From the IMG/VR virus record IMGVR_UViG_2721755658_000001: 49,030 nucleotides of DNA, one strand, 5' to 3'. Under the pieces are notes generated by a model. That model had not been told where the DNA came from. It did not search any database and saw only the letters and a list, made by a program, of their open reading frames with translations. Below, in pieces: positions 4,751-47,746 of this stretch. Numbering within the stretch: position 1 is the first letter of the stretch; each line of letters begins with the position of its first letter. This DNA comes from a virus. Its lineage: Duplodnaviria > Heunggongvirae > Uroviricota > Caudoviricetes. The translations under genes and the position numbers were made by a program.

Positions 4751-4808
4751 AAAAACGGCGGCAGAGCAGTCACGGAGTAAAACTGATACCGCCAAACGTC
4801 ACCAGAAA
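4751..4808 (-). ncRNA. dicF: DicF small regulatory RNA (ftsZ-targeting sRNA of the dicB operon)
   Basis: Reverse complement reads TTTCTGGTGACGTTTGGCGGTATCAGTTTTACTCCGTGACTGCTCTGCCGCCGTTTTT, matching recalled DicF with its terminator hairpin. Confidence 0.85.
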
Positions 4809-6585: not shown

Positions 6586-6867
6586 ATGGAAGAATTAAGA
6601 ATATTTCTCAATTCTCTTTCGTCAGATGAACAGCGTATGTTTGCATGCGAGTGTGGTACCAGCATCGGTTATCTAAGAAAGGCATTGAGTAAAGGTCAAG
6701 TGTTAGGGGCATCGTTATGTGTCCTTATTGAGCGAGCCAGTAATGGTGAAGTTACACGTCAGCAACTAAGGCCTTTTGATTGGATGAATATTTGGCCCGA
6801 GCTGGAAGATACCAAAACGTTAACACAACCACTTTCTAGGAGCTTGATTCATGAAAATCAAGCATGA
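6586..6867 (+). CDS. Cro-like / YdaS-family HTH protein
   Basis: 93-aa ORF with strong SD TAAGGAG, divergent from repressor; YdaS-like sequence pattern (recalled family). Confidence 0.65.
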   Translation: MEELRIFLNSLSSDEQRMFACECGTSIGYLRKALSKGQVLGASLCVLIERASNGEVTRQQLRPFDWMNIWPELEDTKTLTQPLSRSLIHENQA

Positions 6868-7276
6868 ACACATCCGCATGGCGATGAATGCCTGGGCGCA
6901 TCCGGACGGTGAAAAAGTTCCGGCAGCTGAAATAACCAGGGCTTATTTTGAACTGGGTATGACGTTCCCAGAACTGTATGACGACAGCCATCCGGAAGCC
7001 CTGGCTCGCAATACCCAGAAAATTTTCCGCTGGGTAGAGAAAGACACCCCTGATGCAGTTGAAAAAATTCAGGCGTTGTTACCAGCGATCGAAAAGGCAA
7101 TGCCACCTTTGCTGGTGGCCAGAATGCGCAGCCACAGTTCAGCTTATTTTCGGGAGCTGGTGGAGACGCGGGAGCGACTGGTGAGAGACGCTGATGATTT
7201 TGTCGCAGTGGCAATCGCCGGTTTCAATCAGATGAACCGTGGTGGCCCGGCAGGAAATGCTGTGGCAGTGCATTGA
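6851..7276 (+). CDS. YdaT-family protein
   Basis: Begins MKIKHEHI, characteristic of YdaT-like prophage proteins; SD AGGAG 8 nt upstream; overlaps previous gene. Confidence 0.6.
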   Translation: MKIKHEHIRMAMNAWAHPDGEKVPAAEITRAYFELGMTFPELYDDSHPEALARNTQKIFRWVEKDTPDAVEKIQALLPAIEKAMPPLLVARMRSHSSAYFRELVETRERLVRDADDFVAVAIAGFNQMNRGGPAGNAVAVH

Positions 7277-7347
7277 GTGATAATAGCCATATCGAATCGC
7301 TTCCGGCAACTCGTGAGTAAAAAGATTCGGTATCAGAAGAGGTGAGT

Positions 7348-8418
7348 ATGGCTAACGCCTGGCTCAGATTATGGCATGACATGCCAAATGACCCTAAGTG
7401 GCGAACAATTGCCAGGGTGTCAGGGCAGCCAATTGCAACAGTGATGGCAGTGTATATCCACCTCCTGGTGAGCGCGTCACGAAATGTCACGCGAGGTCAC
7501 ATTGATGTCACGACAGAAGATTTAGCAAGTGCGCTCGACGTGACAGAAGAGGTAATTGATTCAATTTTGCAGACGATGCAGGGGCGGGTACTTGATGGTG
7601 ATTTAATCACTGGATGGGAAAAACGCCAGGTGCTGAAAGAGGACAACGGCAATATTTCGCAAACCGCAAAATCTCCTGCAGAGCGCAAGAGGGCGCAGCG
7701 AGAGAGGGAAAGAAAGCGGGAACAAAATGGCGATTGTCACGGCGCGTCACGAAATGTCACGCACATGTCACGACGAGTCACGACAGATAAAGATACAGAT
7801 AAAGATACAGATCAAGAAGATCAAAACACTATGGTCCATGGCGTAAAAAACGCCACGAACCAGGCAGGGGATGTTCAGACCGTCAATCTTGGTCAGCCAG
7901 CAGGCACGACACCGGAAGCCGATTCAGCGTATGCGCTGAAAGCCGATTCGGGCGCTGTGCAGCAGGTGATGACCGCAAGGGCGGAGCAATCACACCAACT
8001 GCAGCAGCCTGAAGCCGATTCCGCCATTCAGCGGGAAGCCGATCGGGTAGTCCCGGAAAACACCGGGCAGTCTGTGGGACGAGTGGATTATCCGGATGTG
8101 TTCGAACAGGTCTGGCGGGAGTACCCGTTGCGTGCTGGGGCAAACCCGAAGAAATCCGCTTTCAGTGCCTGGAAGGCCAGATTACGCGAGGGGGTGCCAC
8201 CAGAGGCCATGCTGGATGGCGTGAGGCGTTACGCAAGATACCTGGCGGCTACCAGGAAAACGGGAACGGAATTTGTTCAGCGAGCTACGACGTTTTTTGG
8301 ACCGGACCGGAATTTTGAAAACCCTTGGTTGCTCCCGGTAAGCGGCACGAACAACCAGCGTTGTGTGAATCATATTTCTGAACCGGATACCGAAATTCCG
8401 CCGGGCTTCAGGGGGTAA
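7348..8418 (+). CDS. Phage replication initiation protein (replisome organizer), contains the candidate origin iterons
   Basis: Position after cro module; SD GAGG upstream of ATG 7348 (ORF opens with GTG at 7342); internal GTCACG iterons; basic/acidic linker. Confidence 0.65.
   Translation: MANAWLRLWHDMPNDPKWRTIARVSGQPIATVMAVYIHLLVSASRNVTRGHIDVTTEDLASALDVTEEVIDSILQTMQGRVLDGDLITGWEKRQVLKEDNGNISQTAKSPAERKRAQRERERKREQNGDCHGASRNVTHMSRRVTTDKDTDKDTDQEDQNTMVHGVKNATNQAGDVQTVNLGQPAGTTPEADSAYALKADSGAVQQVMTARAEQSHQLQQPEADSAIQREADRVVPENTGQSVGRVDYPDVFEQVWREYPLRAGANPKKSAFSAWKARLREGVPPEAMLDGVRRYARYLAATRKTGTEFVQRATTFFGPDRNFENPWLLPVSGTNNQRCVNHISEPDTEIPPGFRG
7476..7818. repeat. Candidate replication origin: two clusters of GTCACG iterons at helical spacing plus tandem 12-bp repeats
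   Basis: GTCACG at 7476, 7486, 7496, 7507 and at 7736, 7746, 7756, 7767, 7777; tandem ACAGATAAAGAT at 7783-7818; A-rich tract follows. Confidence 0.55.
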
Positions 8419-8458
8419 GTGTTTATTTCAGGTTATGAGGTAATTTTCAGGAGGACTT

Positions 8459-8881
8459 GTGGCAAAAGTATTTACACAGGAAGAGCGGGAAAAAATTAAA
8501 GGGCAGATTGTTGAGCTAGTACGCCGGAGTGGGCGCGAGACGTTACGGCAACTGAAAGCCAAGACAGGTGCGACAAGATATCTGATGAGCGTTCTTGCCA
8601 GAGAGCTGGTTGCCAGTGGCGATGTATACAACTCCGGCTACGGGTTATTCCCGTCTGAACAGGCGCGTAAGGACTGGCAAAACGCCCGCAAAAAACTCTC
8701 GAGGGCAAAGGGGAATAAACCGGCTATGGTTGATCCGGAGCTTATCTGGTCATTACCTGACGGAGAAATACGTCGCTACGACAGGCATCATAATATAATT
8801 TGTAGTGAGTGCCGTAAAAGCGAAGTTATGCAGCGCATATTGTCGTTTTATCAGGGGGATTCTCAGTATTTATTGAAGTGA
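8459..8881 (+). CDS. Hypothetical phage protein (140 aa)
   Basis: GTG start with AGGAG SD 4 nt upstream; contains CxxC pair. Confidence 0.5.
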   Translation: MAKVFTQEEREKIKGQIVELVRRSGRETLRQLKAKTGATRYLMSVLARELVASGDVYNSGYGLFPSEQARKDWQNARKKLSRAKGNKPAMVDPELIWSLPDGEIRRYDRHHNIICSECRKSEVMQRILSFYQGDSQYLLK

Positions 8882-9588
8882 AGAGACTAAAGAGCATTAA
8901 TACATATGTGAATTGAAATTTTCATGGTACAGGGGAGAGCTAGCGTGGTTGTCCGCTTTGTGCTAGAGGTGGATATTGAGGGGTATCAGAGGATATTTAA
9001 AATGGATGGTCCGTTTTACAGATGTACTTACATAATCACTGCCTAGTTGCTTCCTTTATGCCACGCTTTTATGCCCCAAAGATAGGTGTTGATGATAGCG
9101 GTAGTCGGTTCGGTGTAATACAACTGCTCGGTTACCGTAATCACTAATGGTGCCTGAGATTGCTTCTACGTAAGGGGGTAAGGAGTTGGCTCTGAGCATG
9201 TCAGCAACGAGGCCATAGTCTGCTGACTTCGGGGGGGCATTCAGGAGCAGAATGAACAGATGGGGCGGGATTGGCTAATAATCTTACCCATGGCGAATGT
9301 TAGCGACATGATCATATTCAGGTCATCAGCGGTCATCCGTGTCATCTAGGGCTCTATCCTGACAGAAAACTATCCGGCACACTGCGTGAAAAATCAGAGT
9401 AAATGATACCTTCAGAGCATACAGGAGAAAGTCGACGCTTTTCAAACGTGTGCCTTAAGAATTAGAGGATAATATAACAAAAATGAAATTTAGGATAACA
9501 TCAGACTTGACATAGCTAGGTTATTGTAACTAAATGCGGTAAAACTAATCAGAAAAATTTTCGTTATTTTTTATAGAGAGAATAATCT

Positions 9589-10113
9589 ATGGAGAAAACA
9601 TTTATTTCGGAAATATTATCAGCTTATCATCATTTACAATTAGAAAATGCAAATGAAGCAGCCACAAGACTAAAAGTGATAGATCGGGTATTAAAGGAAG
9701 TCTTGATGTGGACTGATAGTGATATAAAACCAGAAGAGCATGTGACTGAAGATGGTTTGACAACTTATGCTGATTATATACTAAAAACAGCTAATATTGC
9801 TCTTGTTGTTGAAGCTAAAAAGGCAGGGCCAAGCTTTAGTACAATTCCAGGAAAAAGAAAAATAAAGCTAAGTAATAGTTTTTTACAAAGTGATCTTGGT
9901 GAAGCGATAATACAAGCTAGAGATTACGCCAGGAAATTTGGTATAGATTATGCTGTCGCTACGAATGGAAATGTATGGGCATGTTTTGCAGCTCAGAGGC
10001 ATGACAATGTCAAATTTAATGATTCAATAGCGCTTGTGTTCTGGTCGTTAGAAGATTGCTTAAATGATAATTATCAAGAATTCTATGATTTACTTAGTCG
10101 TGAAAATGGGTGA
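9589..10113 (+). CDS. N-terminal fragment of IS1-interrupted defence-like gene: PD-(D/E)xK nuclease domain (HsdR-N / Mrr-like)
   Basis: Motif ..ADYILKTANIALVVEAKK.. (D ... EAK); ORF terminates at a stop codon supplied by the IS1 left end. Confidence 0.7.
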   Translation: MEKTFISEILSAYHHLQLENANEAATRLKVIDRVLKEVLMWTDSDIKPEEHVTEDGLTTYADYILKTANIALVVEAKKAGPSFSTIPGKRKIKLSNSFLQSDLGEAIIQARDYARKFGIDYAVATNGNVWACFAAQRHDNVKFNDSIALVFWSLEDCLNDNYQEFYDLLSRENG

Positions 10114-10163
10114 TGCTGCCAACTTACTGATTTAGTGTATGATGGTGTTTTTGAGGTGCTCCA

Positions 10164-10439
10164 GTGGCTTCTGTTTCTATCAGCTGTCCCTCCTGTTCAG
10201 CTACTGACGGGGTGGTGCGTAACGGCAAAAGCACCGCCGGACATCAGCGCTATCTCTGCTCTCACTGCCGTAAAACATGGCAACTGCAGTTCACTTACAC
10301 CGCTTCTCAACCCGGTACGCACCAGAAAATCATTGATATGGCCATGAATGGCGTTGGATGCCGGGCAACAGCCCGCATTATGGGCGTTGGCCTCAACACG
10401 ATTTTACGTCACTTAAAAAACTCAGGCCGCAGTCGGTAA
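10164..10439 (+). CDS. insA: IS1 InsA
   Basis: 91-aa ORF matching IS1 InsA (zinc finger CPSC..CSHC). Confidence 0.95.
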
Positions 10440-10861
10440 CCTCGCGCATACAGCCGGGCAGTGACGTCATCGTCTGCGCGGAAATGGACGAACAGTGGGG
10501 ATACGTCGGGGCTAAATCGCGCCAGCGCTGGCTGTTTTACGCGTATGACAGGCTCCGGAAGACGGTTGTTGCGCACGTATTCGGTGAACGCACTATGGCG
10601 ACGCTGGGGCGTCTTATGAGCCTGCTGTCACCCTTTGACGTGGTGATATGGATGACGGATGGCTGGCCGCTGTATGAATCCCGCCTGAAGGGAAAGCTGC
10701 ACGTAATCAGCAAGCGATATACGCAGCGAATTGAGCGGCATAACCTGAATCTGAGGCAGCACCTGGCACGGCTGGGACGGAAGTCGCTGTCGTTCTCAAA
10801 ATCGGTGGAGCTGCATGACAAAGTCATCGGGCATTATCTGAACATAAAACACTATCAATAA
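10358..10861 (+). CDS. insB: IS1 InsB (transposase, produced as InsAB' by -1 frameshift)
   Basis: 167-aa ORF matching IS1 InsB; slippery TTAAAAAACTC near 10412. Confidence 0.95.
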
Positions 10862-10862
10862 G

Positions 10863-12869
10863 TTGGAGTCATTACCTGAAAATGTTATATCGGGAAGTCT
10901 AGAAACAGCACTTTTAGGTCGCGTCGAAAATCAAATAGAATTTAGAAAATTAAGAAGTTTTTATTCGCAACAAAACAGAACACAGACAAATAATCCAATA
11001 TATCATTTGATTGCTGATGAATTAAGGTTGGCTTTTTCTGATTCTATACTTTACTTGGATGAAGACTCCTTTGATAAATGTTATGTTTCAACACCAGAAA
11101 CTATGAGATTCGATAGTAAAATTAGAATGAATATAGGTAGGCGTTCAAGTGTGCTGAATGGTGAAGTACTAAAAGGGCTTAATGATAAAGATACAAAAAG
11201 AATAGTTGATAAGTTTCAGGTTAAAGGGAAGAAAAAAATAAAAGTCAGAAATGACAAACCTCTCGCGATCTTGTTACTTGGGACTGTAGGTGCAGGTAAA
11301 ACAACATTTCTTCATTACATGAGAAAGGTTAGAATAAAAGAGTTTTTTTCAAATCAATGTGATATCTTGACGCCGCATTGGGTTCATATAGACTTTCTAG
11401 ATAATCCATCAGAAAGTTCAATAGTCGATTTTATTTATAAATCAATTCTGGAATATATCAATAAGCATCCTGTTTTGAGTAATAAGGATTTTGTATTTGA
11501 TGCATTTCGAGAAGATATTGAGGCGATAAAATCAGGACCTCTTTTTTTATTGAGTGAGGATCAAAAAAATACCAGAATCTCGGATTTTTTATATGAGCAA
11601 TATAAAAAGGTAAAACCTTATGTTGATAAAATAATAAGTCGCGTTACAAAAGAGACATCTTTTTTTCTTGTTATTGATAACGTTGATCAGATCGAGTTTG
11701 ATGATATCCAGTCCCGGATATTTACCGAATCATTTTCAATTTCCAGAGCGCTTTCATTAAATTTAGTACTTTCATTGAGGCAGTCTACATTTATCAAACA
11801 TAAAAACTCACCTGCTATAGATGCTTTCGATTTTGAAGTTATACAAATAGATCCACCGAGAATAAGTAGTGTGATTGCAAAACGCTTTGCACTAGTAAAG
11901 TATATGACAAGTAATAAAAGTGGAAATTTTATTGCAGAAAATGGCGCTAAAGTTGTATTGGATGATATATCACAATTAGTCGATATTATTAGTGGGTCTG
12001 TGCTGGGAAGTGAGATTGGAACACGTATTGAAGTTCTTGCTACGGATGATGTTCGATTAGCATTACGTATGACTCGTGAGTTCTTAGAAAGAGGGTATAC
12101 GAGTCCAGGTAAAGCAGTACAAATTTTCAGAGAACAAGGAAGGTATCTTCTTCCACGTCATGAGGCATTTAGAGCTATATTACTGGGTACTGAGTTGACT
12201 TATAGCGAGTCAACGTCGACTATTGCGAACCCGTTTGATTCGAATTTAGCTGTGACACAAATGCAATTATTGAGGCTGTACATTCTTAATGTTATCGTTT
12301 CGTATGCAAGCGATCCCGGATTCAGACAAATCGATGGTTCGGTAATAACTGAAAAGTTAAGGTTAATTGGTATAGGTGACTCTTTCACGCATCGAGTTCT
12401 CGTTGATTTATGCAATAAAAGGTTTTTGTTCACCGTAAATCACGGAGATCCAACAGCTTCATCAAGTTTCATTCCTTCTCGGCTGGGGGGGTATATTGCA
12501 AAAGAACTTATTAGTAATTTCACGTTTATAGAGTGTATGCTTTATGATACATATATTGCTGATGCTAAGGTATGGAGTAGATTAAGAGATCTGAGTGCTA
12601 GAATTGAGTCTGAAAGAGATGTAATAAAAAGGATCACAATGCGTGTAAGTCGAGCAAAAACTTTCTATTATCAAATGGAAAAACTTATTTCACCGCTTTG
12701 TTCCGAAGCTATTATAAGAGGGTTGCCTTCACAATGGTGTTCTAACCCTCTTCAGGAGCGTTTACCTGAGTTAAGAAAAGAACTAAGAAGAGTTCTTAAT
12801 TCTGCAAAAAAAACATATCAACCGAAACAGGATGATTCGTCTAAGTATTTCCTTGATGAAACGGTTTAA
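10863..12869 (+). CDS. C-terminal fragment of IS1-interrupted defence-like gene: STAND/NACHT-like P-loop NTPase plus helical C-terminal domain
   Basis: Walker A LLLGTVGAGKTTFLHYM, Walker B-like FFLVIDNVDQ; first 7 codons derive from the IS1 right end (TTG start); in frame with the upstream fragment once IS1 is removed. Confidence 0.7.
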   Translation: MESLPENVISGSLETALLGRVENQIEFRKLRSFYSQQNRTQTNNPIYHLIADELRLAFSDSILYLDEDSFDKCYVSTPETMRFDSKIRMNIGRRSSVLNGEVLKGLNDKDTKRIVDKFQVKGKKKIKVRNDKPLAILLLGTVGAGKTTFLHYMRKVRIKEFFSNQCDILTPHWVHIDFLDNPSESSIVDFIYKSILEYINKHPVLSNKDFVFDAFREDIEAIKSGPLFLLSEDQKNTRISDFLYEQYKKVKPYVDKIISRVTKETSFFLVIDNVDQIEFDDIQSRIFTESFSISRALSLNLVLSLRQSTFIKHKNSPAIDAFDFEVIQIDPPRISSVIAKRFALVKYMTSNKSGNFIAENGAKVVLDDISQLVDIISGSVLGSEIGTRIEVLATDDVRLALRMTREFLERGYTSPGKAVQIFREQGRYLLPRHEAFRAILLGTELTYSESTSTIANPFDSNLAVTQMQLLRLYILNVIVSYASDPGFRQIDGSVITEKLRLIGIGDSFTHRVLVDLCNKRFLFTVNHGDPTASSSFIPSRLGGYIAKELISNFTFIECMLYDTYIADAKVWSRLRDLSARIESERDVIKRITMRVSRAKTFYYQMEKLISPLCSEAIIRGLPSQWCSNPLQERLPELRKELRRVLNSAKKTYQPKQDDSSKYFLDETV

Positions 12870-13716
12870 AAGATGGGGCTAGTATGCCCCATGCTATTAT
12901 CTTACTAAAATAAATTTGGAAGTGCTGTTACAATAGATAGAGGCTCATTGTCGAGTCTCTGTTTAAATTAGTTGGTTATTTTATGTTTATTTGTTTCGAT
13001 ATCAAATAAAAAATCAATAAAGACAGCTTTGTTGCTAGTATTTAATTCTGTAGTAATATACGGATAGTTGTTTTCTGATATACCACATATCTTTAATTGT
13101 TGGTTTTTGTCTTAGTTGATTTAAATTCAACCAACCACTCCAGCAACCTAAATATTCCTCCAGTTCCAAACAATGAATATATGATCAGGAGCATAGCACT
13201 GCTCTTCATTAAAAATTTACACTTAGTTTTGAGAAAACTGCTTACGTTATCTTAACTCTGAATTTGTATATCTTAAGAAGTGCTAGTTATATTTAGTTGT
13301 TGTGTTCCATGTTTTACAGAAAAATCAGAGAAACTGTACTCAATAGTTGCATCTCATCACTGATGAGACCGCCTTGTATTTATCAAGACTGGTGTACGTC
13401 CGATACAGAAAGTTGTCGTGCTGGTCCTCAAATGTGCGCTGGCTATTGCGGGTAATGGCAATTTATTGTCTTGCTATTGTCCTTATGGATCGCCTTTCTG
13501 ATTGATTTTATATTGGCGAGGTAACGGGAGTTAAGTACAATGGCTGCGGGTGCTTGAGGCTATCTGTCTCAGGCATGAACACCAAAGGCAGATAGAGAAA
13601 AGCCCCAGTTAACATTACGCGTCCGGCAAGACGCTTAACATTAATCTGAGGCCAATTTCATGCTTTGCACATGTAGGTTAGCCTCTTACGTGCCGAAAGG
13701 CAAGGAGAAGCAGGCT

Positions 13717-13872
13717 ATGAAGCAGCAAAAGGCGATGTTAATCGCCCTGATCGTCATCTGTTTAACCGTCATAGTGACGGCACTGGTAACGAGGAAAGAC
13801 CTCTGCGAGGTACGAATCCGAACCGGCCAGACGGAGGTCGCTGTCTTCACAGTCTACGAACCTGAGGAGTAA
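13717..13872 (+). CDS. hokD: Hok-family type I toxin (51 aa), HokD/RelF-like
   Basis: MKQQKAMLIALIVICLTVIVTALVTRKDLCEVRIRTGQTEVAVFTVYEPEE; SD AGGAGA 8 nt upstream. Confidence 0.85.
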   Translation: MKQQKAMLIALIVICLTVIVTALVTRKDLCEVRIRTGQTEVAVFTVYEPEE

Positions 13873-13940
13873 GAGACTTGGCGAGGGAGAAATCCCTCGC
13901 CGCCTCTGATGTGTCAGGCATCCTCAACGCACCCGCGCTT

Positions 13941-13965
13941 AACCCGCTTCGGCGGGTTTATTTTA
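13941..13965 (+). terminator. Rho-independent terminator downstream of hok
   Basis: Stem CCCGC-TTCG-GCGGG followed by a T-run; preceded by a second hairpin at 13881-13902. Confidence 0.6.
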
Positions 13966-14330
13966 TCTGTAAATATTTTTATAAAAATAATGCCCACACA
14001 CAGCATAAAACAAAAAGTATCACAGATAAAAAAGGAGCGTAATGTGCAGATTTGTTGTTTTCCATATTTACTCACTTTAACATAATCAATATTGATATGG
14101 TTGTTGTTTCGGTGGTTTCAAACGAGATGTTATGGTGATCTGGTAAAATTGCATAACATTAAAATTTAATTTATCTAATCGCTTTTAATAATAAGCGTTG
14201 TGTTTATCCCAGCAATCTGTTGTTTGACTTTTATTCCATTAATGTAGGGGCTTTACACTGGAACCAGTTTATTTATACTTTATACGCCAGCCTGAACAAC
14301 TGGCACCTGCTGCGCCAGCAGAGACAACCG

Positions 14331-14609
14331 ATGGCGCACGATACCAAATTACATAATTCTGATGATTCTGCCGTCTTTGCCAGCAGGTGCGGACGGCGTT
14401 TTCATGCATTCAAATCGGACTGGTTCCAGCATCCACCATGCACTGAAGAGCAGGCTGAATGGATAATTCAGTGTTACCGCAGGCGCGGATACGAGGTTAA
14501 GAAAGCCCTTAGTCTCGACTACCGTCACTGGATAATCTCAGTCAGATTGCCTTACTCCGAACGCCCACCACGTGCGTCCCGCACTTTCCAGCAACGGATC
14601 TGGAGGTAA
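14331..14609 (+). CDS. Small hypothetical protein upstream of ydfU (Rem-like position)
   Basis: ATG-initiated 92-aa ORF in the position of rem in K-12 Qin; weak SD. Confidence 0.45.
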   Translation: MAHDTKLHNSDDSAVFASRCGRRFHAFKSDWFQHPPCTEEQAEWIIQCYRRRGYEVKKALSLDYRHWIISVRLPYSERPPRASRTFQQRIWR

Positions 14610-14610
14610 C

Positions 14611-15660
14611 GTGCGGGTATTACTTAGACCTGTTCTGGTGCCTGAGCTTGGGCTGGTGGTCCTTAAGCCGGGCCGTGAATCCATACAGATATTTCATAAT
14701 CCTCGAGTGCTGGTGGAACCGGAACCAAAAAGCATGCGTAATCTGCCATCCGGAGTCGTTCCTGCCGTTGGCCAGCCGCTGGCGGAAGACAAAACATTGC
14801 TGCCGTTTTTTAGTAACGAACGGGTGATTCGTGCTGCTGGCGGCGTTGGCTCATTGTCTGACTGGCTATTACGTCATGTTACATCCTGCCAGTGGCCTAA
14901 TGGCGATTACCATCACACTGAAACAGTCATTCACCGTTATGGTACCGGCGCAATGGTGTTGTGTTGGCACTGCGACAACCAACTGCGTGACCAGACATCG
15001 GAATCACTGGAGCTGCTTGCTCAACAAAATCTGACAGCATGGGTGATTGACGTCATCCGTCACGCAATAAGCGGTACGCAGGAGCGGGAATTATCTTTGG
15101 CTGAATTATCCTGGTGGGCGGTCTGCAATCAGGTGGTGGATGCACTACCTGAGGCTGTATCGCGTCGTTCGCTGGGATTACCAGCGGAAAAAATCTGCTC
15201 GGTGTACCGCGAAAGCGACATCGTACCGGGAGAGCAGACCGCCACCAGCATATTGAAACAACGCACAAAAAATCTTGCACCGTTGCCTTACGCCCACCAG
15301 CAACAAAAACTACCACAGGAAAAGACGGTGGTAAGCATCACCGTTGATCCAGAGTCTCCGGAATCTTTCATGAAGCTGCCTAAACGTCGCCGCTGGGTTA
15401 AGGAGAAATACACACGTTGGGTTAAGACACAGCCGTGTGCTTGCTGCGGTATGCCAGCCGACGATCCGCATCATCTGATTGGTCACGGGCAGGGCGGAAT
15501 GGGAACAAAAGCACATGATCTCTTTGTGTTGCCTTTGTGCAGAAAGCATCACAACGAGCTGCATACGGATACAGTGGCATTTGAAGAGAAGTATGGCTCC
15601 CAACTGGAGCTGATATTTCGTTTTATCGATCGCGCGCTGGCAATTGGCGTACTGGCGTAA
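14611..15660 (+). CDS. ydfU: YdfU-like protein (DUF968, HNH-like C-terminal cysteine/histidine motif)
   Basis: GTG start 4 nt after SD GGAGG gives 349 aa; C-terminal PCACCG..HHLIGHG..CRKHHNELH. Confidence 0.8.
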   Translation: MRVLLRPVLVPELGLVVLKPGRESIQIFHNPRVLVEPEPKSMRNLPSGVVPAVGQPLAEDKTLLPFFSNERVIRAAGGVGSLSDWLLRHVTSCQWPNGDYHHTETVIHRYGTGAMVLCWHCDNQLRDQTSESLELLAQQNLTAWVIDVIRHAISGTQERELSLAELSWWAVCNQVVDALPEAVSRRSLGLPAEKICSVYRESDIVPGEQTATSILKQRTKNLAPLPYAHQQQKLPQEKTVVSITVDPESPESFMKLPKRRRWVKEKYTRWVKTQPCACCGMPADDPHHLIGHGQGGMGTKAHDLFVLPLCRKHHNELHTDTVAFEEKYGSQLELIFRFIDRALAIGVLA

Positions 15661-15673
15661 GTGGAGAACGAGC

Positions 15674-16426
15674 ATGAACCTTGAAGCCTTACCAAAATAT
15701 TACTCCCCAAAATCTCCAAAATTGAGCGATGACGCTCCAGCGACAGGCACCGGTTGTTTAACAATTACGGATGTAATGGCAGCGCAGGGGATGGTGCAGT
15801 CGAAAGCACCACTTGGGTTGGCCTTATTTCTGGCAAAAGTTGGTGTTCAGGACCCTCAGTTTGCGATTGAAGGCCTGCTAAATTACGCGATGGCACTGGA
15901 TAACCCGACATTGAACAAATTGAGTGAAGAAATCCGGTTACAGATTATTCCTTACCTTGTGAATTTTGCCTTTGCTGATTACTCCAGGTCTGCGGCAAGT
16001 AAGGCTCGCTGTGAGCATTGTTCAGGTACGGGATTTTATAATGTATTGCGCGAAGTGGTGAAACACTACAGACGCGGGGAATCTGTAATCAAGGAAGAAT
16101 GGGTGAAGGAACTATGTCAGCATTGCCATGGTAAGGGCGAAGTCAGCACAGCGTGCAGAGGGTGTAAGGGTAAAGGGATTGTTCTGGATGAAAAAAGAAC
16201 CCGGTTTCATGGCGTACCGGTATATAAGATTTGTGGGCGTTGTAATGGAAACCGGTTTAGTCGTTTACCGACCACGCTGGCACGACGTCATGTCCAGAAG
16301 CTGGTACCAGACCTGACCGATTATCAGTGGTATAAGGGGTATGCGGACGTCATTGGTAAACTGGTAACAAAGTGCTGGCAGGAAGAAGCATACGCGGAAG
16401 CGCAATTGAGGAAGGTGACGAGATAA
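15674..16426 (+). CDS. quuQ: Late-gene antitermination protein Q (phage 21/82 type)
   Basis: 250-aa protein with CxxC..CxxC zinc finger; followed by candidate PR' and tR'. Confidence 0.85.
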
Positions 16427-16558: not shown

Positions 16559-17101
16559 TGCTTTAAATGGGGCAATAGAGATATTGAATCTCATCCCGGG
16601 ATAAACATTGGCAGTTGAAGGTCCACGCGAACCATTTATCCGGCAAAATTCCACGCGTAATCCTGTGGTAATTTCTTCTGCATCTCGAAGATTGAGAGCT
16701 GAAACGTGAAGCTGGGCATCGATACGCCATCGGATGGGAATATAAGACCTTTGCTGCTTTTGTAGTCAAAGTTTTTGACAATTCCTGTCATTTTAGGGGA
16801 CAGAAAAACTCCTTAATACTGATAACCTGGTGCACCATACACACGTTCCTGGAGAAAACTACTTTTTTGATAGGGTTGAAGGTGGCTGGATGTCTAAAAT
16901 AAACATTGCTTCATATGTTCAACTATGAGTTAATGACTGCGTCGGTTTGAAGAACAGACGATATACGAAGTAGTTTACTAAAGCAGTTCTCATTTCAGGT
17001 GTTATTCACTTATTCCTTCTTTGAGTCTCTCCAATTAAGTACGAAGTCGTTTCTGTTATGCAAACCATTTATGCCGAAAGGCTCAAGTTAAGGAATGTAG
17101 A

Positions 17102-17317
17102 ATGTCAAATAAAATGACTGGTTTAGTAAAATGGTTTAACGCTGATAAAGGTTTCGGCTTTATTTCTCCTGTTGATGGTAGTAAAGATGTGTTTGTGCAT
17201 TTTTCTGCGATTCAGAATGATAATTATCGAACCTTATTTGAAGGTCAAAAGGTTACCTTCTCTATAGAGAGTGGTGCTAAAGGTCCTGCAGCAGCAAATG
17301 TCATCATTACTGATTAA
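17102..17317 (+). CDS. cspB: Cold-shock protein CspB
   Basis: 71-aa CspA-family protein [38 protein letters not shown].. Confidence 0.9.
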
Positions 17318-17597
17318 AATTCATCGCTCGTCTGTATACGATAACGAAGAAGGCTGATGCCTGAGTAGAGATACGGACAGAGTAGTGAATATTGGATCTC
17401 TTTAATGAAAATTAAGGAGGTCCAATACATGAAACAATGGCCAGCATATTTGGCAAAATCTTAATCAGGAAAAGTATGCTAACCATTGTGGTGAAGTGCA
17501 GGTTTGCTGCATGAATAGTTTTACAGCAGAAGCTAACTGCTGGCATGGCAAAACAAAGTGCGTAAGTGGATGACTCCCACAAAAAGCACCACAATCT

Positions 17598-20191: not shown

Positions 20192-20554
20192 ATTAATATT
20201 AAATCGGATTATTTTTAGCGCTGAATGTGAAATTTAAATAAAAAGGACTCTTCCATGAGTCAATATCCTTGAAATCTTAAGGGTAAGATAAAAGGTCATT
20301 AGACAGAATGACACGTTTTATTAATAAATAAAGCTATTGTTTCATTCGTGTGTTTTTCTTTACAAAAGTAATCCTTGCTATGGTTGGTTAATCATGCGTT
20401 AATGGTGTTCTGGTTTGTTACAAAATTATCTGAAGCAGTCATTGTTATAATTTTATTATTTGTACCTCTTGAGATTTCCTTGTTGGTTTTTCTCTTTGAT
20501 ATTTTTTTTCGGACCATTCTGCCCAAGGGCTAACTTCTTCAAAAGGTAATAATG

Positions 20555-20767
20555 ATGTCTAACAAAATGACTGGTTTAGTGAAATGGTTTAACCCTGAAA
20601 AAGGTTTTGGTTTCATCACGCCGAAAGATGGTAGCAAAGATGTGTTTGTGCATTTCTCAGCTATTCAGAGCAACGATTTCAAAACGTTAACTGAGAATCA
20701 GGAAGTCGAATTTGGTATTGAGAACGGACCTAAAGGCCCTGCAGCTGTTCATGTAGTGGCACTTTGA
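20555..20767 (+). CDS. cspI: Cold-shock protein CspI
   Basis: [70 protein letters not shown]. Confidence 0.9.
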
Positions 20768-20971
20768 GGTAGAAAATATTACAAACCATATTCACTTTAG
20801 ATGCCCGTGTTGCCATGGTTCTCAGTATAGAACATCATCTTTTGATGTTTCTGACAGAAATCCTTTCGGGGCAAAATGTATCTTTTGTAAATCAATGATG
20901 ATTACATTTGATAATATTTCACAATACTTAAATGTTAGCCATCTGTCGTTAGATTTAAGAAAGTGAAAATG

Positions 20972-45150: not shown

Positions 45151-45725
45151 TGGCATTCAGAATGAGTGAACAACCACGGACCATAAAAATTTATAATCTG
45201 CTGGCCGGAACTAATGAATTTATTGGTGAAGGTGATGCATATATTCCGCCTCATACAGGTCTGCCAGCAAACAGTACCGATATTGCACCGCCAGATATTC
45301 CGGCTGGCTTCGTGGCTGTTTTCAACAGTGATGAGTCATCGTGGCATCTCGTTGAAGATCATCGGGGTAAAACGGTTTATGACGTGGCTTCCGGCGACGC
45401 GTTATTTATTTCTGAACTCGGTCCGTTACCGGAAAATGTTACCTGGTTATCGCCGGAAGGGGAGTTTCAGAAGTGGAACGGTACAGTCTGGGTGAAGGAT
45501 ACGGAAGCAGAAAAACTGTTCCGGATCCGGGAGGCGGAAGAAACAAAAAACAGCCTGATGCAGGTAGCCAGTGAGCATATAGCGCCACTTCAGGATGCTG
45601 TAGATCTGGAAATCGCAACGGAGGAAGAAACCTCATTGCTGGAAGCCTGGAAAAAGTATCGGGTGTTGCTGAACCGTGTTGATACATCAACTGCACAGGA
45701 TATTGAATGGCCAGCACTGCCGTAG
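45150..45725 (+). CDS. tfa: Tail fibre assembly protein
   Basis: 191 aa; overlaps stf stop. Confidence 0.85.
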
Positions 45726-46962: not shown

Positions 46963-47746
46963 GAAGATATTCCTTAAAATATTATTGATTTTCATTGCGA
47001 TATTGTATGTCTGATTCAGGATATGTTGACTTATACATCGGTTTTGTCTGGGTTATTGGATATGCCAATCCCTAATTTTATTAGGGCATGACTAAAAATG
47101 CTGAATATGATAAGGAGAGAAGTGATTATCAGTATGCTGTTCATATAGCCTCGAATTAGTAATGTGTTATATATGATATAGTTGACAATTTTTATCTTGG
47201 GTGTTCTTAAAGTTCGTAGATAAACATTGTCGTTTCAGGTATACAGGAATGCTAACAGGTGGCGGCAAAAATCAGGCGGTTTATGGCGCAATCTGAAGTG
47301 GCAACTGCAAACTATCTTATGCAGAGACTCTACACGGATTGGGTTTAAAAGTATACATAGATAACAATTTTTATCTGAAGAAGAAAAATATCAAGGTGAT
47401 ATAGCCTATATGCCTTTGATGCGGAGGAATGAATGTGATGGGAGTGATGTATCTGAATAGTTGAAAAACCGCAGACACGCCTTATGCAAGAAAGTGCTGC
47501 GGTTGGCTGGTAAATTTTTCGATAGTGCGAGTATTGAATGATTTCCAGCCGTTATTGATTTTACGCGTAAATCCATGAAAAAACTACTTATCTGTTGGGG
47601 AGTTTTTTGGGGCATATATGGGACAGAAATAGGCCCCAGATAGACACTGAGATCGAACTTAGGATGCTTTTAAAAAAATGCAACTATCTGAAAAAACCTA
47701 GAAAACGCCAAGGAAACCACAGGATGGGAAAAAACACCTGTGAATT

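Follow-up and report, generated by a model that had tools for sequence, protein, structure and literature searches.

The AT-rich region at positions 8882–14219 is a mosaic of modules in a Qin-type lambdoid E. coli prophage and not a single island. The window, which is the whole stretch of viral DNA analyzed (49,030 nucleotides), carries here a true variable slot (8964–13245) between a Ren-like DUF977 gene and a hok backbone. The best explanation of the whole, in which good though incomplete confidence can be placed, is a three-module mosaic with plasmid-derived cargo, a putative defence gene broken by IS1, and the hok backbone. Such a feature is mostly of an ordinary kind, being a prophage accessory slot in which the cargo was recently killed by IS1 and the seemingly empty DNA is wreckage together with hok/sok regulation. 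The main interesting lead of this stretch, if the proposal set out below is true, would be a new single-gene defence family.

Composition and borders of the variable slot

The GC content of 8882–14219 was 0.393, as against 0.486 for the whole window, 0.505 for the replication genes on the left (6586–8881), and 0.501 for 14220–16426 on the right. The lowest GC content over 1 kb was 0.317, at 11001–12000, and the GC content was uneven inside the region, at 0.34 in the cargo gene fragments, 0.534 in IS1, 0.512 in the hok locus, and 0.308 downstream of hok. Further AT-rich islands of the window lie at ~ 16.5–18, 20–22, and 46–47.5 kb.

Two tracts, termed tract A (8882–9588; 707 bp) and tract B (12870–13659; 790 bp), lack open reading frames of 60 or more amino acids whatever the frame. 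No other ORF-free stretch of the window is as long, the third longest being 410 bp. Composition-matched shuffles were likewise devoid of such a reading frame in 43% of trials for the 707-bp tract and 61% for the 790-bp tract, and the tracts therefore resemble ordinary non-coding DNA and are not statistically depleted of ORFs. These data uphold the preliminary description in its claims that the region is more AT-rich than the flanking phage genes, at ~ 0.50, and that ORF-free tracts occur at about 8.9–9.6 and 12.9–13.7 kb. The further claim that tracts of this length are unusual is correct for their rank within the window but not in comparison with shuffled sequence. Of the decayed genes, promoters, or small RNAs that the tracts had been suggested to hold, a decayed gene, promoter regions, and the hok regulatory RNA were found, while Rfam gave no new small RNA. 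The content of the two tracts is thus accounted for by a pseudogene and a decayed micro-ORF, by the leader of the hok mRNA, by intergenic or regulatory DNA, and by orphan DNA.

The left border of the slot is formed by a backbone tail (8882–8963) that 883 E. coli genomes share at ~ 85% identity and that follows the gene ending at 8881, identified as DUF977/phrog_142 'Ren-like'. Comparison of E. coli genomes placed the end of left-flank homology at 8963–8979, and the adjoining junction DNA (8964–9054) belongs to this cargo lineage, being present only in the seven cargo-carrying genomes. The right border is at 13246, from where conserved backbone runs to 13959 in ~ 1000 E. coli genomes.

The contents of the slot were compared in ten related prophages taken from annotated loci, a sample and not a full census, and eight distinct contents were observed, with both flanks common to seven of the ten. 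The contents were the 834-residue nuclease-ATPase gene of the window; a 47%-identical paralogue in reversed orientation in a Rac-like prophage; AbiH with a 463-residue protein; SMODS with SLATT; an FRG-domain protein; IS110 with a helix-turn-helix protein and an acetyltransferase; two hypothetical proteins; and, in K-12, flxA/ydfV/relBE. Flanks conserved in ~ 880–1000 genomes, enclosing contents that include AbiH, SMODS-SLATT, and two nuclease-ATPase paralogues, give the slot the character of a hotspot in the sampled prophages. Among 5426 complete E. coli genomes, the content seen in the window was confined to 7, and it is not that of all Qin-like prophages, in line with the proposal of a variable accessory locus of Qin-type prophages. 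The extent originally proposed for the cargo island, 8882–14219 between the replication genes and Q, has to be revised: accessory AT-rich DNA does lie there, but it occupies 8964–13245 together with a mini-slot at 13960–14283. Similarly, the K-12 Qin slot had been said to hold flxA, relBE, and hokD; it does hold flxA/ydfV/relBE, but hok is the conserved right flank and not cargo.

The K-12 Qin prophage has the same backbone position, with the order dicC ... (ydfX ydfW flxA ydfV relB relE) hokD rem ydfU ydfT(Q), the genes in brackets being those of the slot. It differs from the window in having neither the replication genes nor the Ren-like gene. Homology between the two begins only at 13703, so that K-12 keeps just the coding part of hok whereas the window has a full-length hok leader, which indicates that the hok leader/sok region was replaced by relBE in K-12.

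The cargo borders were searched for att-like repeats, direct or inverted, and nothing above chance matches was obtained. Given the conserved flanks and the lack of such border repeats, the simplest route of exchange would be homologous recombination between the shared flanks, through which cargo, consisting mostly of defence-type accessory genes, would be swapped. In this respect the slot is similar to the P2/P4 hotspots as outlined by Rousset et al. (2022; PMC9122126), where a short slot between conserved phage flanks is filled by many alternative cargoes, mostly of the defence type; it differs from the hotspots outlined there in phage family (Qin/Rac-type lambdoid) and in position, from the Ren-like gene to hok, where the lambda nin region begins. 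The literature searched contained nothing describing this slot. The hotspot is precisely bounded (8963 and 13246), belongs to prophages that are very common in E. coli, and is a lead in itself, as it could be mined for further defence genes.

The IS1-interrupted cargo gene and its product

The cargo gene is present in two pieces on the plus strand. The N-terminal fragment (9589–10108; codons 1–173 plus 1 nt, in an ORF of 9589–10113) encodes a PD-(D/E)xK/HsdR_N-like nuclease domain, and the C-terminal part (10877–12869) encodes a linker, an ORC/STAND-type P-loop ATPase, a winged helix, and a C-terminal helical bundle. Between them lies a 768-bp IS1 on the plus strand (10109–10876), recognized by its length of ~ 768 bp, its terminal inverted repeats (GGTGATGCTGCC.../...GGAGTCATTACC), the insA (10164–10439) and insB (frame 10358–10861) reading frames, and a target duplication in the range of 8–9 bp, here the 8-bp TGAAAATG at 10101–10108 and 10877–10884. 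This IS1 has 99–99.9% identity to IS1 copies annotated in phage records and is missing from all seven E. coli genomes with this cargo. Excision in silico restored an 834-residue protein identical to an intact allele in E. coli GF3-3 (WP_112869014.1). Since IS1 at codon 174 is the only lesion, the cargo gene of this genome is almost certainly non-functional, its loss being recent. The interruption of this defence-like gene had not been noted in the preliminary description.

The restored protein comprises an N-terminal PD-(D/E)xK nuclease, a P-loop ATPase of the ORC/Cdc6-STAND clade, a winged helix, and a helical C-terminal domain. Residues D62, E75, and K77, and those of the Walker A and B motifs, are invariant across 48 homologues; Walker A reads G306xVGxGKTT314, and the Walker B region is a hydrophobic strand running to D438, followed by D441. 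Pfam HSDR_N_2 matched 36 of the 48 members (best E 5e-7), and HSDR_N_2, AAA_16, nSTAND_NTPase5, NACHT, and KAP each matched between 18 and 40; at E<0.01, NACHT was present in 20 and nSTAND_NTPase5 in 34, the protein of the window itself falling below Pfam cutoffs. The AF2 model of a 93%-identical homologue (P0001; pLDDT 81) placed the winged helix at 632–704, with only a helical bundle of ~ 100 residues after it, and neither this model nor Pfam gave any C-terminal repeat sensor (TPR, LRR, or WD40). The best fold matches of the modelled protein were DNA-loading AAA+ proteins with winged helices, namely Cdc6/ORC, TnsC, and BrxC, and a sequence search of the PDB with the family profile returned matches at P-loop level only.

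The nuclease-ATPase family corresponds to phrog_14719 and is labelled unknown or hypothetical in PHROGs and NCBI. It has at least 399 homologues and 584 clusters (50% identity, E<=1e-30), nearly all of ~ 800–870 amino acids. No family-level HMM in PADLOC-DB v2.0.0, which covers systems named up to 2023, matched it; marginal domain matches were obtained to mREase_II (E 3e-4), to DrmMI and REase_MTase_IIG (~ 1e-7 in some members), and weakly to a type I REase. Nothing specific to the family or its accession was found in the literature. The neighbours of the homologues include Septu PtuAB, SIR2-HerA (in two lineages), Shedu, the TIR proteins CAP12/PCTIR, a caspase, and RES-Xre; Septu, SIR2-HerA, Shedu, and TIR genes are frequent among them. 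Non-defence contexts also exist, with an Aeromonas homologue located between a T6SS and thrABC, and another beside a GGDEF/EAL gene.

Several described proteins share part of this architecture. As in STAND NTPases, a P-loop with Walker A and B motifs is followed by helical and winged-helix domains. In contrast to Avs and bacterial NACHT proteins, which are nuclease-fused STAND/NLR-like ATPases, the cargo protein is ~ 830 residues long and has no TPR, LRR, or WD40 sensor; it also matches no PADLOC model for these systems, its NACHT score is under the Pfam cutoff, and its best fold is Cdc6/ORC and not NLR. The N-terminal PD-(D/E)xK nuclease recalls HsdR, but the SF2 helicase/translocase motor and adjacent hsdM/hsdS are lacking. 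BREX BrxC and RADAR RdrA are components of multigene systems without a fused PD-(D/E)xK nuclease and show no sequence-level match to the cargo protein.

The cargo gene, when intact, would probably defend against phages. This is suggested by the defence-type settings of the family, with Septu, SIR2-HerA, Shedu, and TIR neighbours, and by the prophage slot itself. The intact protein would be a single-gene anti-phage sensor-effector, in which a phage cue sensed by the C-terminal/winged-helix part would drive NTP-dependent assembly and so activate the nuclease. Note that in fold the protein comes closest to DNA-binding initiator ATPases, and a DNA-sensing enzyme would fit this equally well.

One alternative, less probable although the most serious, is that the 834-residue protein is an NTP-dependent restriction-type enzyme and not a STAND-like sensor; it would recognize modified or replicating phage DNA directly through its ORC/Cdc6-like ATPase and winged helix and cut with its HsdR_N-like domain, without killing the cell. 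The top fold matches (Cdc6/ORC, TnsC, BrxC), the resemblance of the N-terminal domain to the HsdR nuclease, the weak PADLOC matches to DrmMI, a type IIG REase-MTase, and a type I REase, and the missing repeat sensor domain are all consistent with such an enzyme. However, Pfam detected no helicase or translocase domain, neither hsdM/hsdS nor any other methyltransferase partner adjoined the gene in any locus examined, and Pfam also matched NACHT, nSTAND5, and AAA_16.

A wider form of the sensor-effector proposal can be offered tentatively, with rather less than even confidence. The phrog_14719 protein may be the founding member of a new and widespread anti-phage system made of a single gene, which would recur in an undescribed Qin/Rac-type hotspot downstream of the Ren-like gene; as cargo of IncF-type plasmids, the gene may be exchanged beside a tyrosine recombinase and its 14-6-14 core site. 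A large unnamed nuclease-ATPase family, strongly associated with defence islands and available as a 100% identical intact allele in E. coli GF3-3, is the lead that follows.

Plasmid-type DNA in tract A

The part of tract A next to the junction DNA carries a putative pseudogene remnant on the minus strand (9055–9345), corresponding to the N-terminal ~ 112 codons of a plasmid-type tyrosine recombinase. In a tblastn search with plasmid integrases, residues 48–112 aligned to 9234–9055, and the aligned segment contained an in-frame stop; the match reached E 1e-5 when 1 kb was searched and was lost at E 1e-3 when the search space was larger. DNA matches to the 5' end of integrase genes occur at 9203–9245 and 9303–9345, and the distance from the start codon of the remnant (9345) to the ATG of the cargo gene is 243 bp, compared with 243–244 bp in two intact plasmid loci (L004 and L016). 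The identity of the remnant thus rests on a weak protein match combined with DNA matches and collinearity. Only residues ~ 1–112 are recognizable, with a stop and frameshifts, and the C-terminal catalytic domain (R-H-R-Y) is missing, which makes the remnant a pseudogene stump. The same recombinase family was also sought in other slot variants, the 'recombinase' pseudogene of C5 and ydfW/ydfX of K-12, and no tblastn match was obtained.

The region upstream of the recombinase (9346–9480) is 72–76% identical to plasmid integrase upstream regions and resembles those on Enterobacter and E. coli plasmids regardless of cargo. It includes a candidate core site, a 14-6-14 inverted repeat (TCTACTTTTTCAAA-CGTACA-TTTTAATAAGTAGA) that occurs with 0–3 mismatches in six plasmid-type loci and has arms agreeing at 12 of 14 positions; the copy in the window (9432–9466) is degenerate, with more than nine mismatches. 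The 5' region of the cargo gene (9481–9588, plus strand), with a candidate promoter element TTGACA at 9507–9512, aligned at 86–87% identity with plasmid loci containing the same gene (L016, L024, and L021) and did not align with plasmids carrying other cargo.

At larger scale, 9323–12892 of the window is 86% identical to an IncF-like contig with TraI, YafO, an intact divergent 329-residue integrase, and IncFII RepA, and the pairing of integrase and cargo gene was found also in L004 and L024. The closest relatives in general are on IncF-type plasmids, with 86% DNA identity and 93–99% protein identity. The cargo derives from a locus of the IncF-type plasmid kind in which a tyrosine recombinase and its upstream site were paired with a divergent 834-residue gene. 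In the phage, the gene with its terminator and the shared intergenic region are retained, the recombinase is reduced to its decayed 5' third, and 353 bp of orphan DNA completes the set. Another lead is the plasmid recombinase, which has a candidate core site and adjoins cargo that varies from plasmid to plasmid.

The plasmid relatives raise the question of whether the gene serves plasmids, as a maintenance factor or one in conflicts between plasmids or mobile elements, and reached the prophage accidentally, having nothing to do with phage defence. On IncF-type plasmids its closest relatives do have a resolvase-like recombinase, TA systems, and RepFII as neighbours, and Klebsiella and Enterobacter predominate in the 90% cluster. 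This explanation is nevertheless improbable: the same prophage slot has been taken independently by two distant paralogues, chromosomal homologues in several phyla adjoin Septu, SIR2-HerA, and Shedu, the family is itself a PHROG family, and anti-plasmid and anti-phage defence can coexist.

Tract B and the hok/sok backbone

Tract B is made up of a terminator, an orphan segment of 353 bp, a 29-codon ORF with a frameshift, and the promoter and leader of hok. The terminator-like hairpin of the cargo gene (12873–12892, plus strand) marks the end of homology with the plasmid loci. It is followed by AT-rich orphan DNA (12893–13245) with no ORF longer than 44 amino acids, for which no match was found, even in distant mode, in plasmids or in E. 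coli outside the seven cargo genomes, and which has no counterpart in the loci of close homologues.

It is hardly likely that the ORF-free tracts are functional non-coding cargo elements (a small RNA, a regulatory RNA acting on the nuclease-ATPase gene, or sites of recombination) and not products of decay: both accompany the gene in all seven E. coli genomes at 98–99.9% identity, and 9346–9588, including the candidate core site, is ~ 86% conserved with plasmid loci, but the seven genomes are too alike for conservation to inform, Rfam in E-value mode detected only the hok leader, the flanking regions of more distant homologues on both sides are unlike the tracts, and the core-site copy of the window is degenerate with its recombinase a stump. 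A conserved non-coding RNA in tract A was likewise rejected, as the upstream regions of distant homologues (that of Aeromonas, the Rac-like paralogue, and a 72% homologue) share nothing. An Rfam match to rsmX, located on the hok terminator, was attributed to chance.

From 13246 to 13547 (plus strand) the sequence upstream of hok is conserved at 86–93% identity in ~ 1000 genomes. This segment includes a decayed hydrophobic ORF of 29 codons (13418–13505) with a weakened Shine-Dalgarno sequence and a 2-bp deletion near 13451. In an alignment read by eye, substitutions in its frame among six prophages were nearly all synonymous, and the peptide is encoded in phages Tritos, Evi, mEp460_ev081, and HannyBb. 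A promoter scan placed a promoter-like site at 13513–13541.

The hok/sok/mok type I toxin–antitoxin locus (13548–13965, plus strand) consists of a leader (13548–13722), mok (13660–13872; 70 amino acids) with hok inside it (13717–13872), and a terminator (13941–13958). Rfam RF01794 matched over the full length of the model (115.7 bits), with a predicted Sok target region; Pfam HOK_GEF (PF01848) matched hok with E 5.8e-22; and a 5' GGGTGC at 13548 is complementary to a 3' GCACCC near 13930, as in a fold-back. Both hok/sok and the sequence upstream of it belong to the conserved backbone and not to the cargo.

A second small variable slot follows the hok terminator (13960–14283; 31% GC) and contains no credible ORF. 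It is conserved in four of the compared loci (L001, L002, L008, and L009) and is replaced in UTI89, C5, 2015C, WR3-3, and EC42405, with a doc toxin gene in EC42405; in K-12, its place is taken by rem.

The prophage slot and its alternative contents

The region 8882-14219 was found to have a GC content of 39.3%, against 48.6% for the whole window, 50.5% for the replication genes upstream and 50.1% for the ydfU-Q block downstream. The contrast with the flanks noted in the preliminary description is therefore real, and composition is also uneven inside the region, with 53% GC in IS1, 51% in the hok locus, 31-37% in the DNA that they interrupt and 42% in the tract 8882-9588. Comparison of a sample of ten related prophages, seven of which had both flanks in common while K-12 and a Rac-like prophage lacked parts of them, revealed eight different contents at this position. 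These comprise the nuclease-ATPase cargo gene (intact in E. coli GF3-3, two ORFs in EC42405); a frameshifted AbiH gene with a 463-aa protein (AHB21); two hypothetical proteins (UTI89); SMODS and SLATT with an unrelated recombinase fragment (C5); IS110 with HTH and acetyltransferase; an FRG-domain protein; flxA/ydfV/relBE in K-12, flxA and relBE having been named for its Qin prophage in the preliminary description; and, in the Rac-like prophage, a paralogue (L008 6001-8451, L009 4487-6937) that is 47% identical to the cargo protein and lies in the opposite orientation, without an adjoining hok. Of 5426 E. coli genomes, 8 carry this paralogue, and one copy is split in two. Among 5426 complete E. 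coli genomes, just 7 have the window's cargo; the gene is split differently in two of them, and none contains the IS1. The feature belongs to a familiar class, that of prophage accessory hotspots in which the cargo is decaying. The earlier interpretation as a variable accessory locus of Qin-type prophages was largely correct but needs four corrections.

The slot is narrower than the 8882-14219 first assigned to it. Homology to prophages sharing the backbone stops at 8963 (8963-8979) and restarts at 13246, in one case at 13296, and the first 82 bp of the tract starting at 8882 are backbone. The gene ending at 8881 is DUF977, labeled Ren-like in PHROGs, so that, by the standard gene order of lambda, the slot corresponds to the ren/nin junction. 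A DicF sRNA gene at 4756-4807 (minus strand) confirms a Qin-type early-left region.

The hok/sok locus (13246-13959) is conserved backbone, a flank of the slot and not part of its cargo as first described. Rfam RF01794, the hok mRNA leader, matches it full length on the plus strand, Hok lies inside a mok frame (Pfam), and a promoter-like site, a terminator and 5'/3' complementarity are consistent with a complete locus. In K-12 Qin, by contrast, homology to the window begins only at 13703, the hok leader being replaced there by relBE. Directly after the hok terminator, comparison with other prophages revealed a second small variable slot (13960-14283), occupied elsewhere by rem (K-12), a doc-family toxin gene with a small ORF (EC42405) or a 130-aa ORF (WR3-3). 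The 129-aa TTG ORF listed at 14220-14609 probably has an internal start, because its phrog_1212 match is restricted to the C-terminal 66 residues and a 92-aa gene is annotated at this place in related prophages.

The interrupted cargo gene and its protein family

The ORF starting at 9589 ends after 174 codons, and a complete IS1 of 768 bp (10109-10876), flanked by the 8-bp duplication TGAAAATG, precedes resumption of the reading frame through to 12869. In silico removal of IS1 and one duplication copy gave a single 834-aa ORF identical at 834 of 834 residues to the intact GF3-3 protein, annotated 'hypothetical'; thus IS1 is the sole lesion, and its insertion is presumably recent.

The protein belongs to a large family: one search returned at least 399 matches, and 584 clusters (50% identity, E<=1e-30) were counted, nearly all members being 800-870 aa, from Proteobacteria and beyond. 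Source names were confined to 'hypothetical', 'P-loop NTPase fold protein' and 'HsdR N-terminal domain-containing', and in PHROGs the family is phrog_14719, listed as of unknown function. Residues D62, E75 and K77 (PD-ExK motif), the Walker A loop and D438/D441 are invariant, and Pfam matches were weak but consistent (HSDR_N_2, AAA_16, nSTAND_NTPase5, NACHT, KAP). An AlphaFold model of a 93%-identical homologue (P0001; pLDDT 81, pTM 0.74) showed, in order, an alpha/beta nuclease, a linker, a P-loop core with lid, a winged helix and a helical C-terminal bundle. PADLOC gave no family-level match. Homologues neighbor Septu PtuAB, SIR2-HerA (two lineages), Shedu SduA, a CAP12/PCTIR TIR protein, a caspase, and RES-Xre with Mrr. 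Other homologues lie in contexts with no relation to defense. The protein is most likely a single-gene defense nuclease switched by its NTPase; the trigger could be a phage protein, as for STAND proteins, or DNA, as for a restriction-type enzyme. In the window prophage the gene earlier called defense-like is dead, split by IS1.

Truncated or split alleles recur in the family besides this IS1 hit. Many truncated members were found in E. coli in the clusters of P0001 and P0089, among them forms of 450-500 aa and one of 398 aa that occurs on 58 contigs, which suggests recurrent inactivation, although some may be assembly breaks. Speculatively, this pattern would be consistent with the gene being costly or toxic. 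The family and the hotspot are worthwhile leads, both still candidates.

A recombinase remnant and plasmid relatives

On plasmids of Enterobacter, Klebsiella and E. coli, the start of tyrosine-recombinase genes, comprising their first codons and the DNA upstream, matches positions 9303-9480 at 72-76%. At the protein level, residues 48-112 of the recombinase aligned in translated searches to 9234->9055 on the minus strand, interrupted by an in-frame stop; this match is weak alone and collinear with those at the DNA level. The cargo gene's closest relatives lie on an IncF-like contig (86% DNA identity over 9323-12892), where an intact 329-aa recombinase is divergent from the nuclease-ATPase gene with 244 bp between them; in the window, 243 bp separate the remnant's ATG (9345) from that of the cargo gene (9589). 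A 72% homologue is paired with the recombinase in the same way, and so is the Phytobacter gene, next to which the recombinase is frameshifted too.

Within the intergenic region lies an inverted repeat of 14-6-14 layout, TCTACTTTTTCAAA-CGTACA-TTTTAATAAGTAGA, which six plasmid-type loci with differing cargo retain with 0-3 mismatches and of which the window has a degenerate copy (9432-9466). Copies were located at L016 5843-5876, L004 5867-5900, L010 5130-5163, L011 3685-3718 and L024 3845-3878 of the compared loci, ~ 90-110 bp upstream of the plasmid recombinase gene. Between loci with different cargo, conservation stops just past the repeat, and the plasmid cargoes beyond it are the nuclease-ATPase with a TIR protein, a 162-aa ORF with InaA kinase/PP2C, and IS1. 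Our interpretation of these sequence data is that the repeat is a candidate core site of the recombinase and the plasmid locus a candidate cargo-exchange point.

ORF-free tracts and a small hydrophobic ORF

The tracts 8882-9588 and 12870-13659 hold no ORF of >=60 aa in any frame and are, as described, long: they are the two longest ORF-free stretches of the window. Their length had been called unusual; 43-61% of same-composition shuffles of the two tracts also lacked such an ORF, and the tracts therefore simply look non-coding. Decayed genes, promoters or small RNAs had been suggested within them, and the recombinase remnant, a promoter-like site and the hok leader were indeed found, but no new RNA.

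Four pieces make up the second tract. The first is the terminator-like hairpin of the cargo gene (12873-12892), at which homology to plasmids ends. It is followed by 353 bp of orphan DNA that matched nothing elsewhere, by ~ 300 bp of conserved backbone and by 112 bp at the start of the hok leader (13548-13659). An unannotated 29-codon hydrophobic ORF, MLVLKCALAIAAVMAIYCLAVVLMDRLSD (13418-13505), lies just upstream of the hok promoter. A 29-aa peptide is encoded behind an AGGAGG site in five other Qin/Rac-like prophages (L002, L012-L015), with substitutions that, on reading of their alignment (A3), are almost all synonymous, and also by the sequenced phages Tritos, Evi, mEp460_ev081 and HannyBb. 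In the window, the ribosome-binding site of this ORF is weakened and a 2-bp deletion shifts its frame.

Elsewhere in the window, the third-longest ORF-free stretch (46996-47405; 410 bp, 35% GC) lies in an AT-rich island at ~ 46-47.5 kb. Two of the other AT-rich islands are explained by matches to the cspA-type thermoregulator 5' UTR (16941-17333 and 20408-20813), which parallel cspB/cspF/cspI of K-12 Qin. A full-length match to the Rfam IS009 RNA was located near the right end (45493-45691, plus strand).
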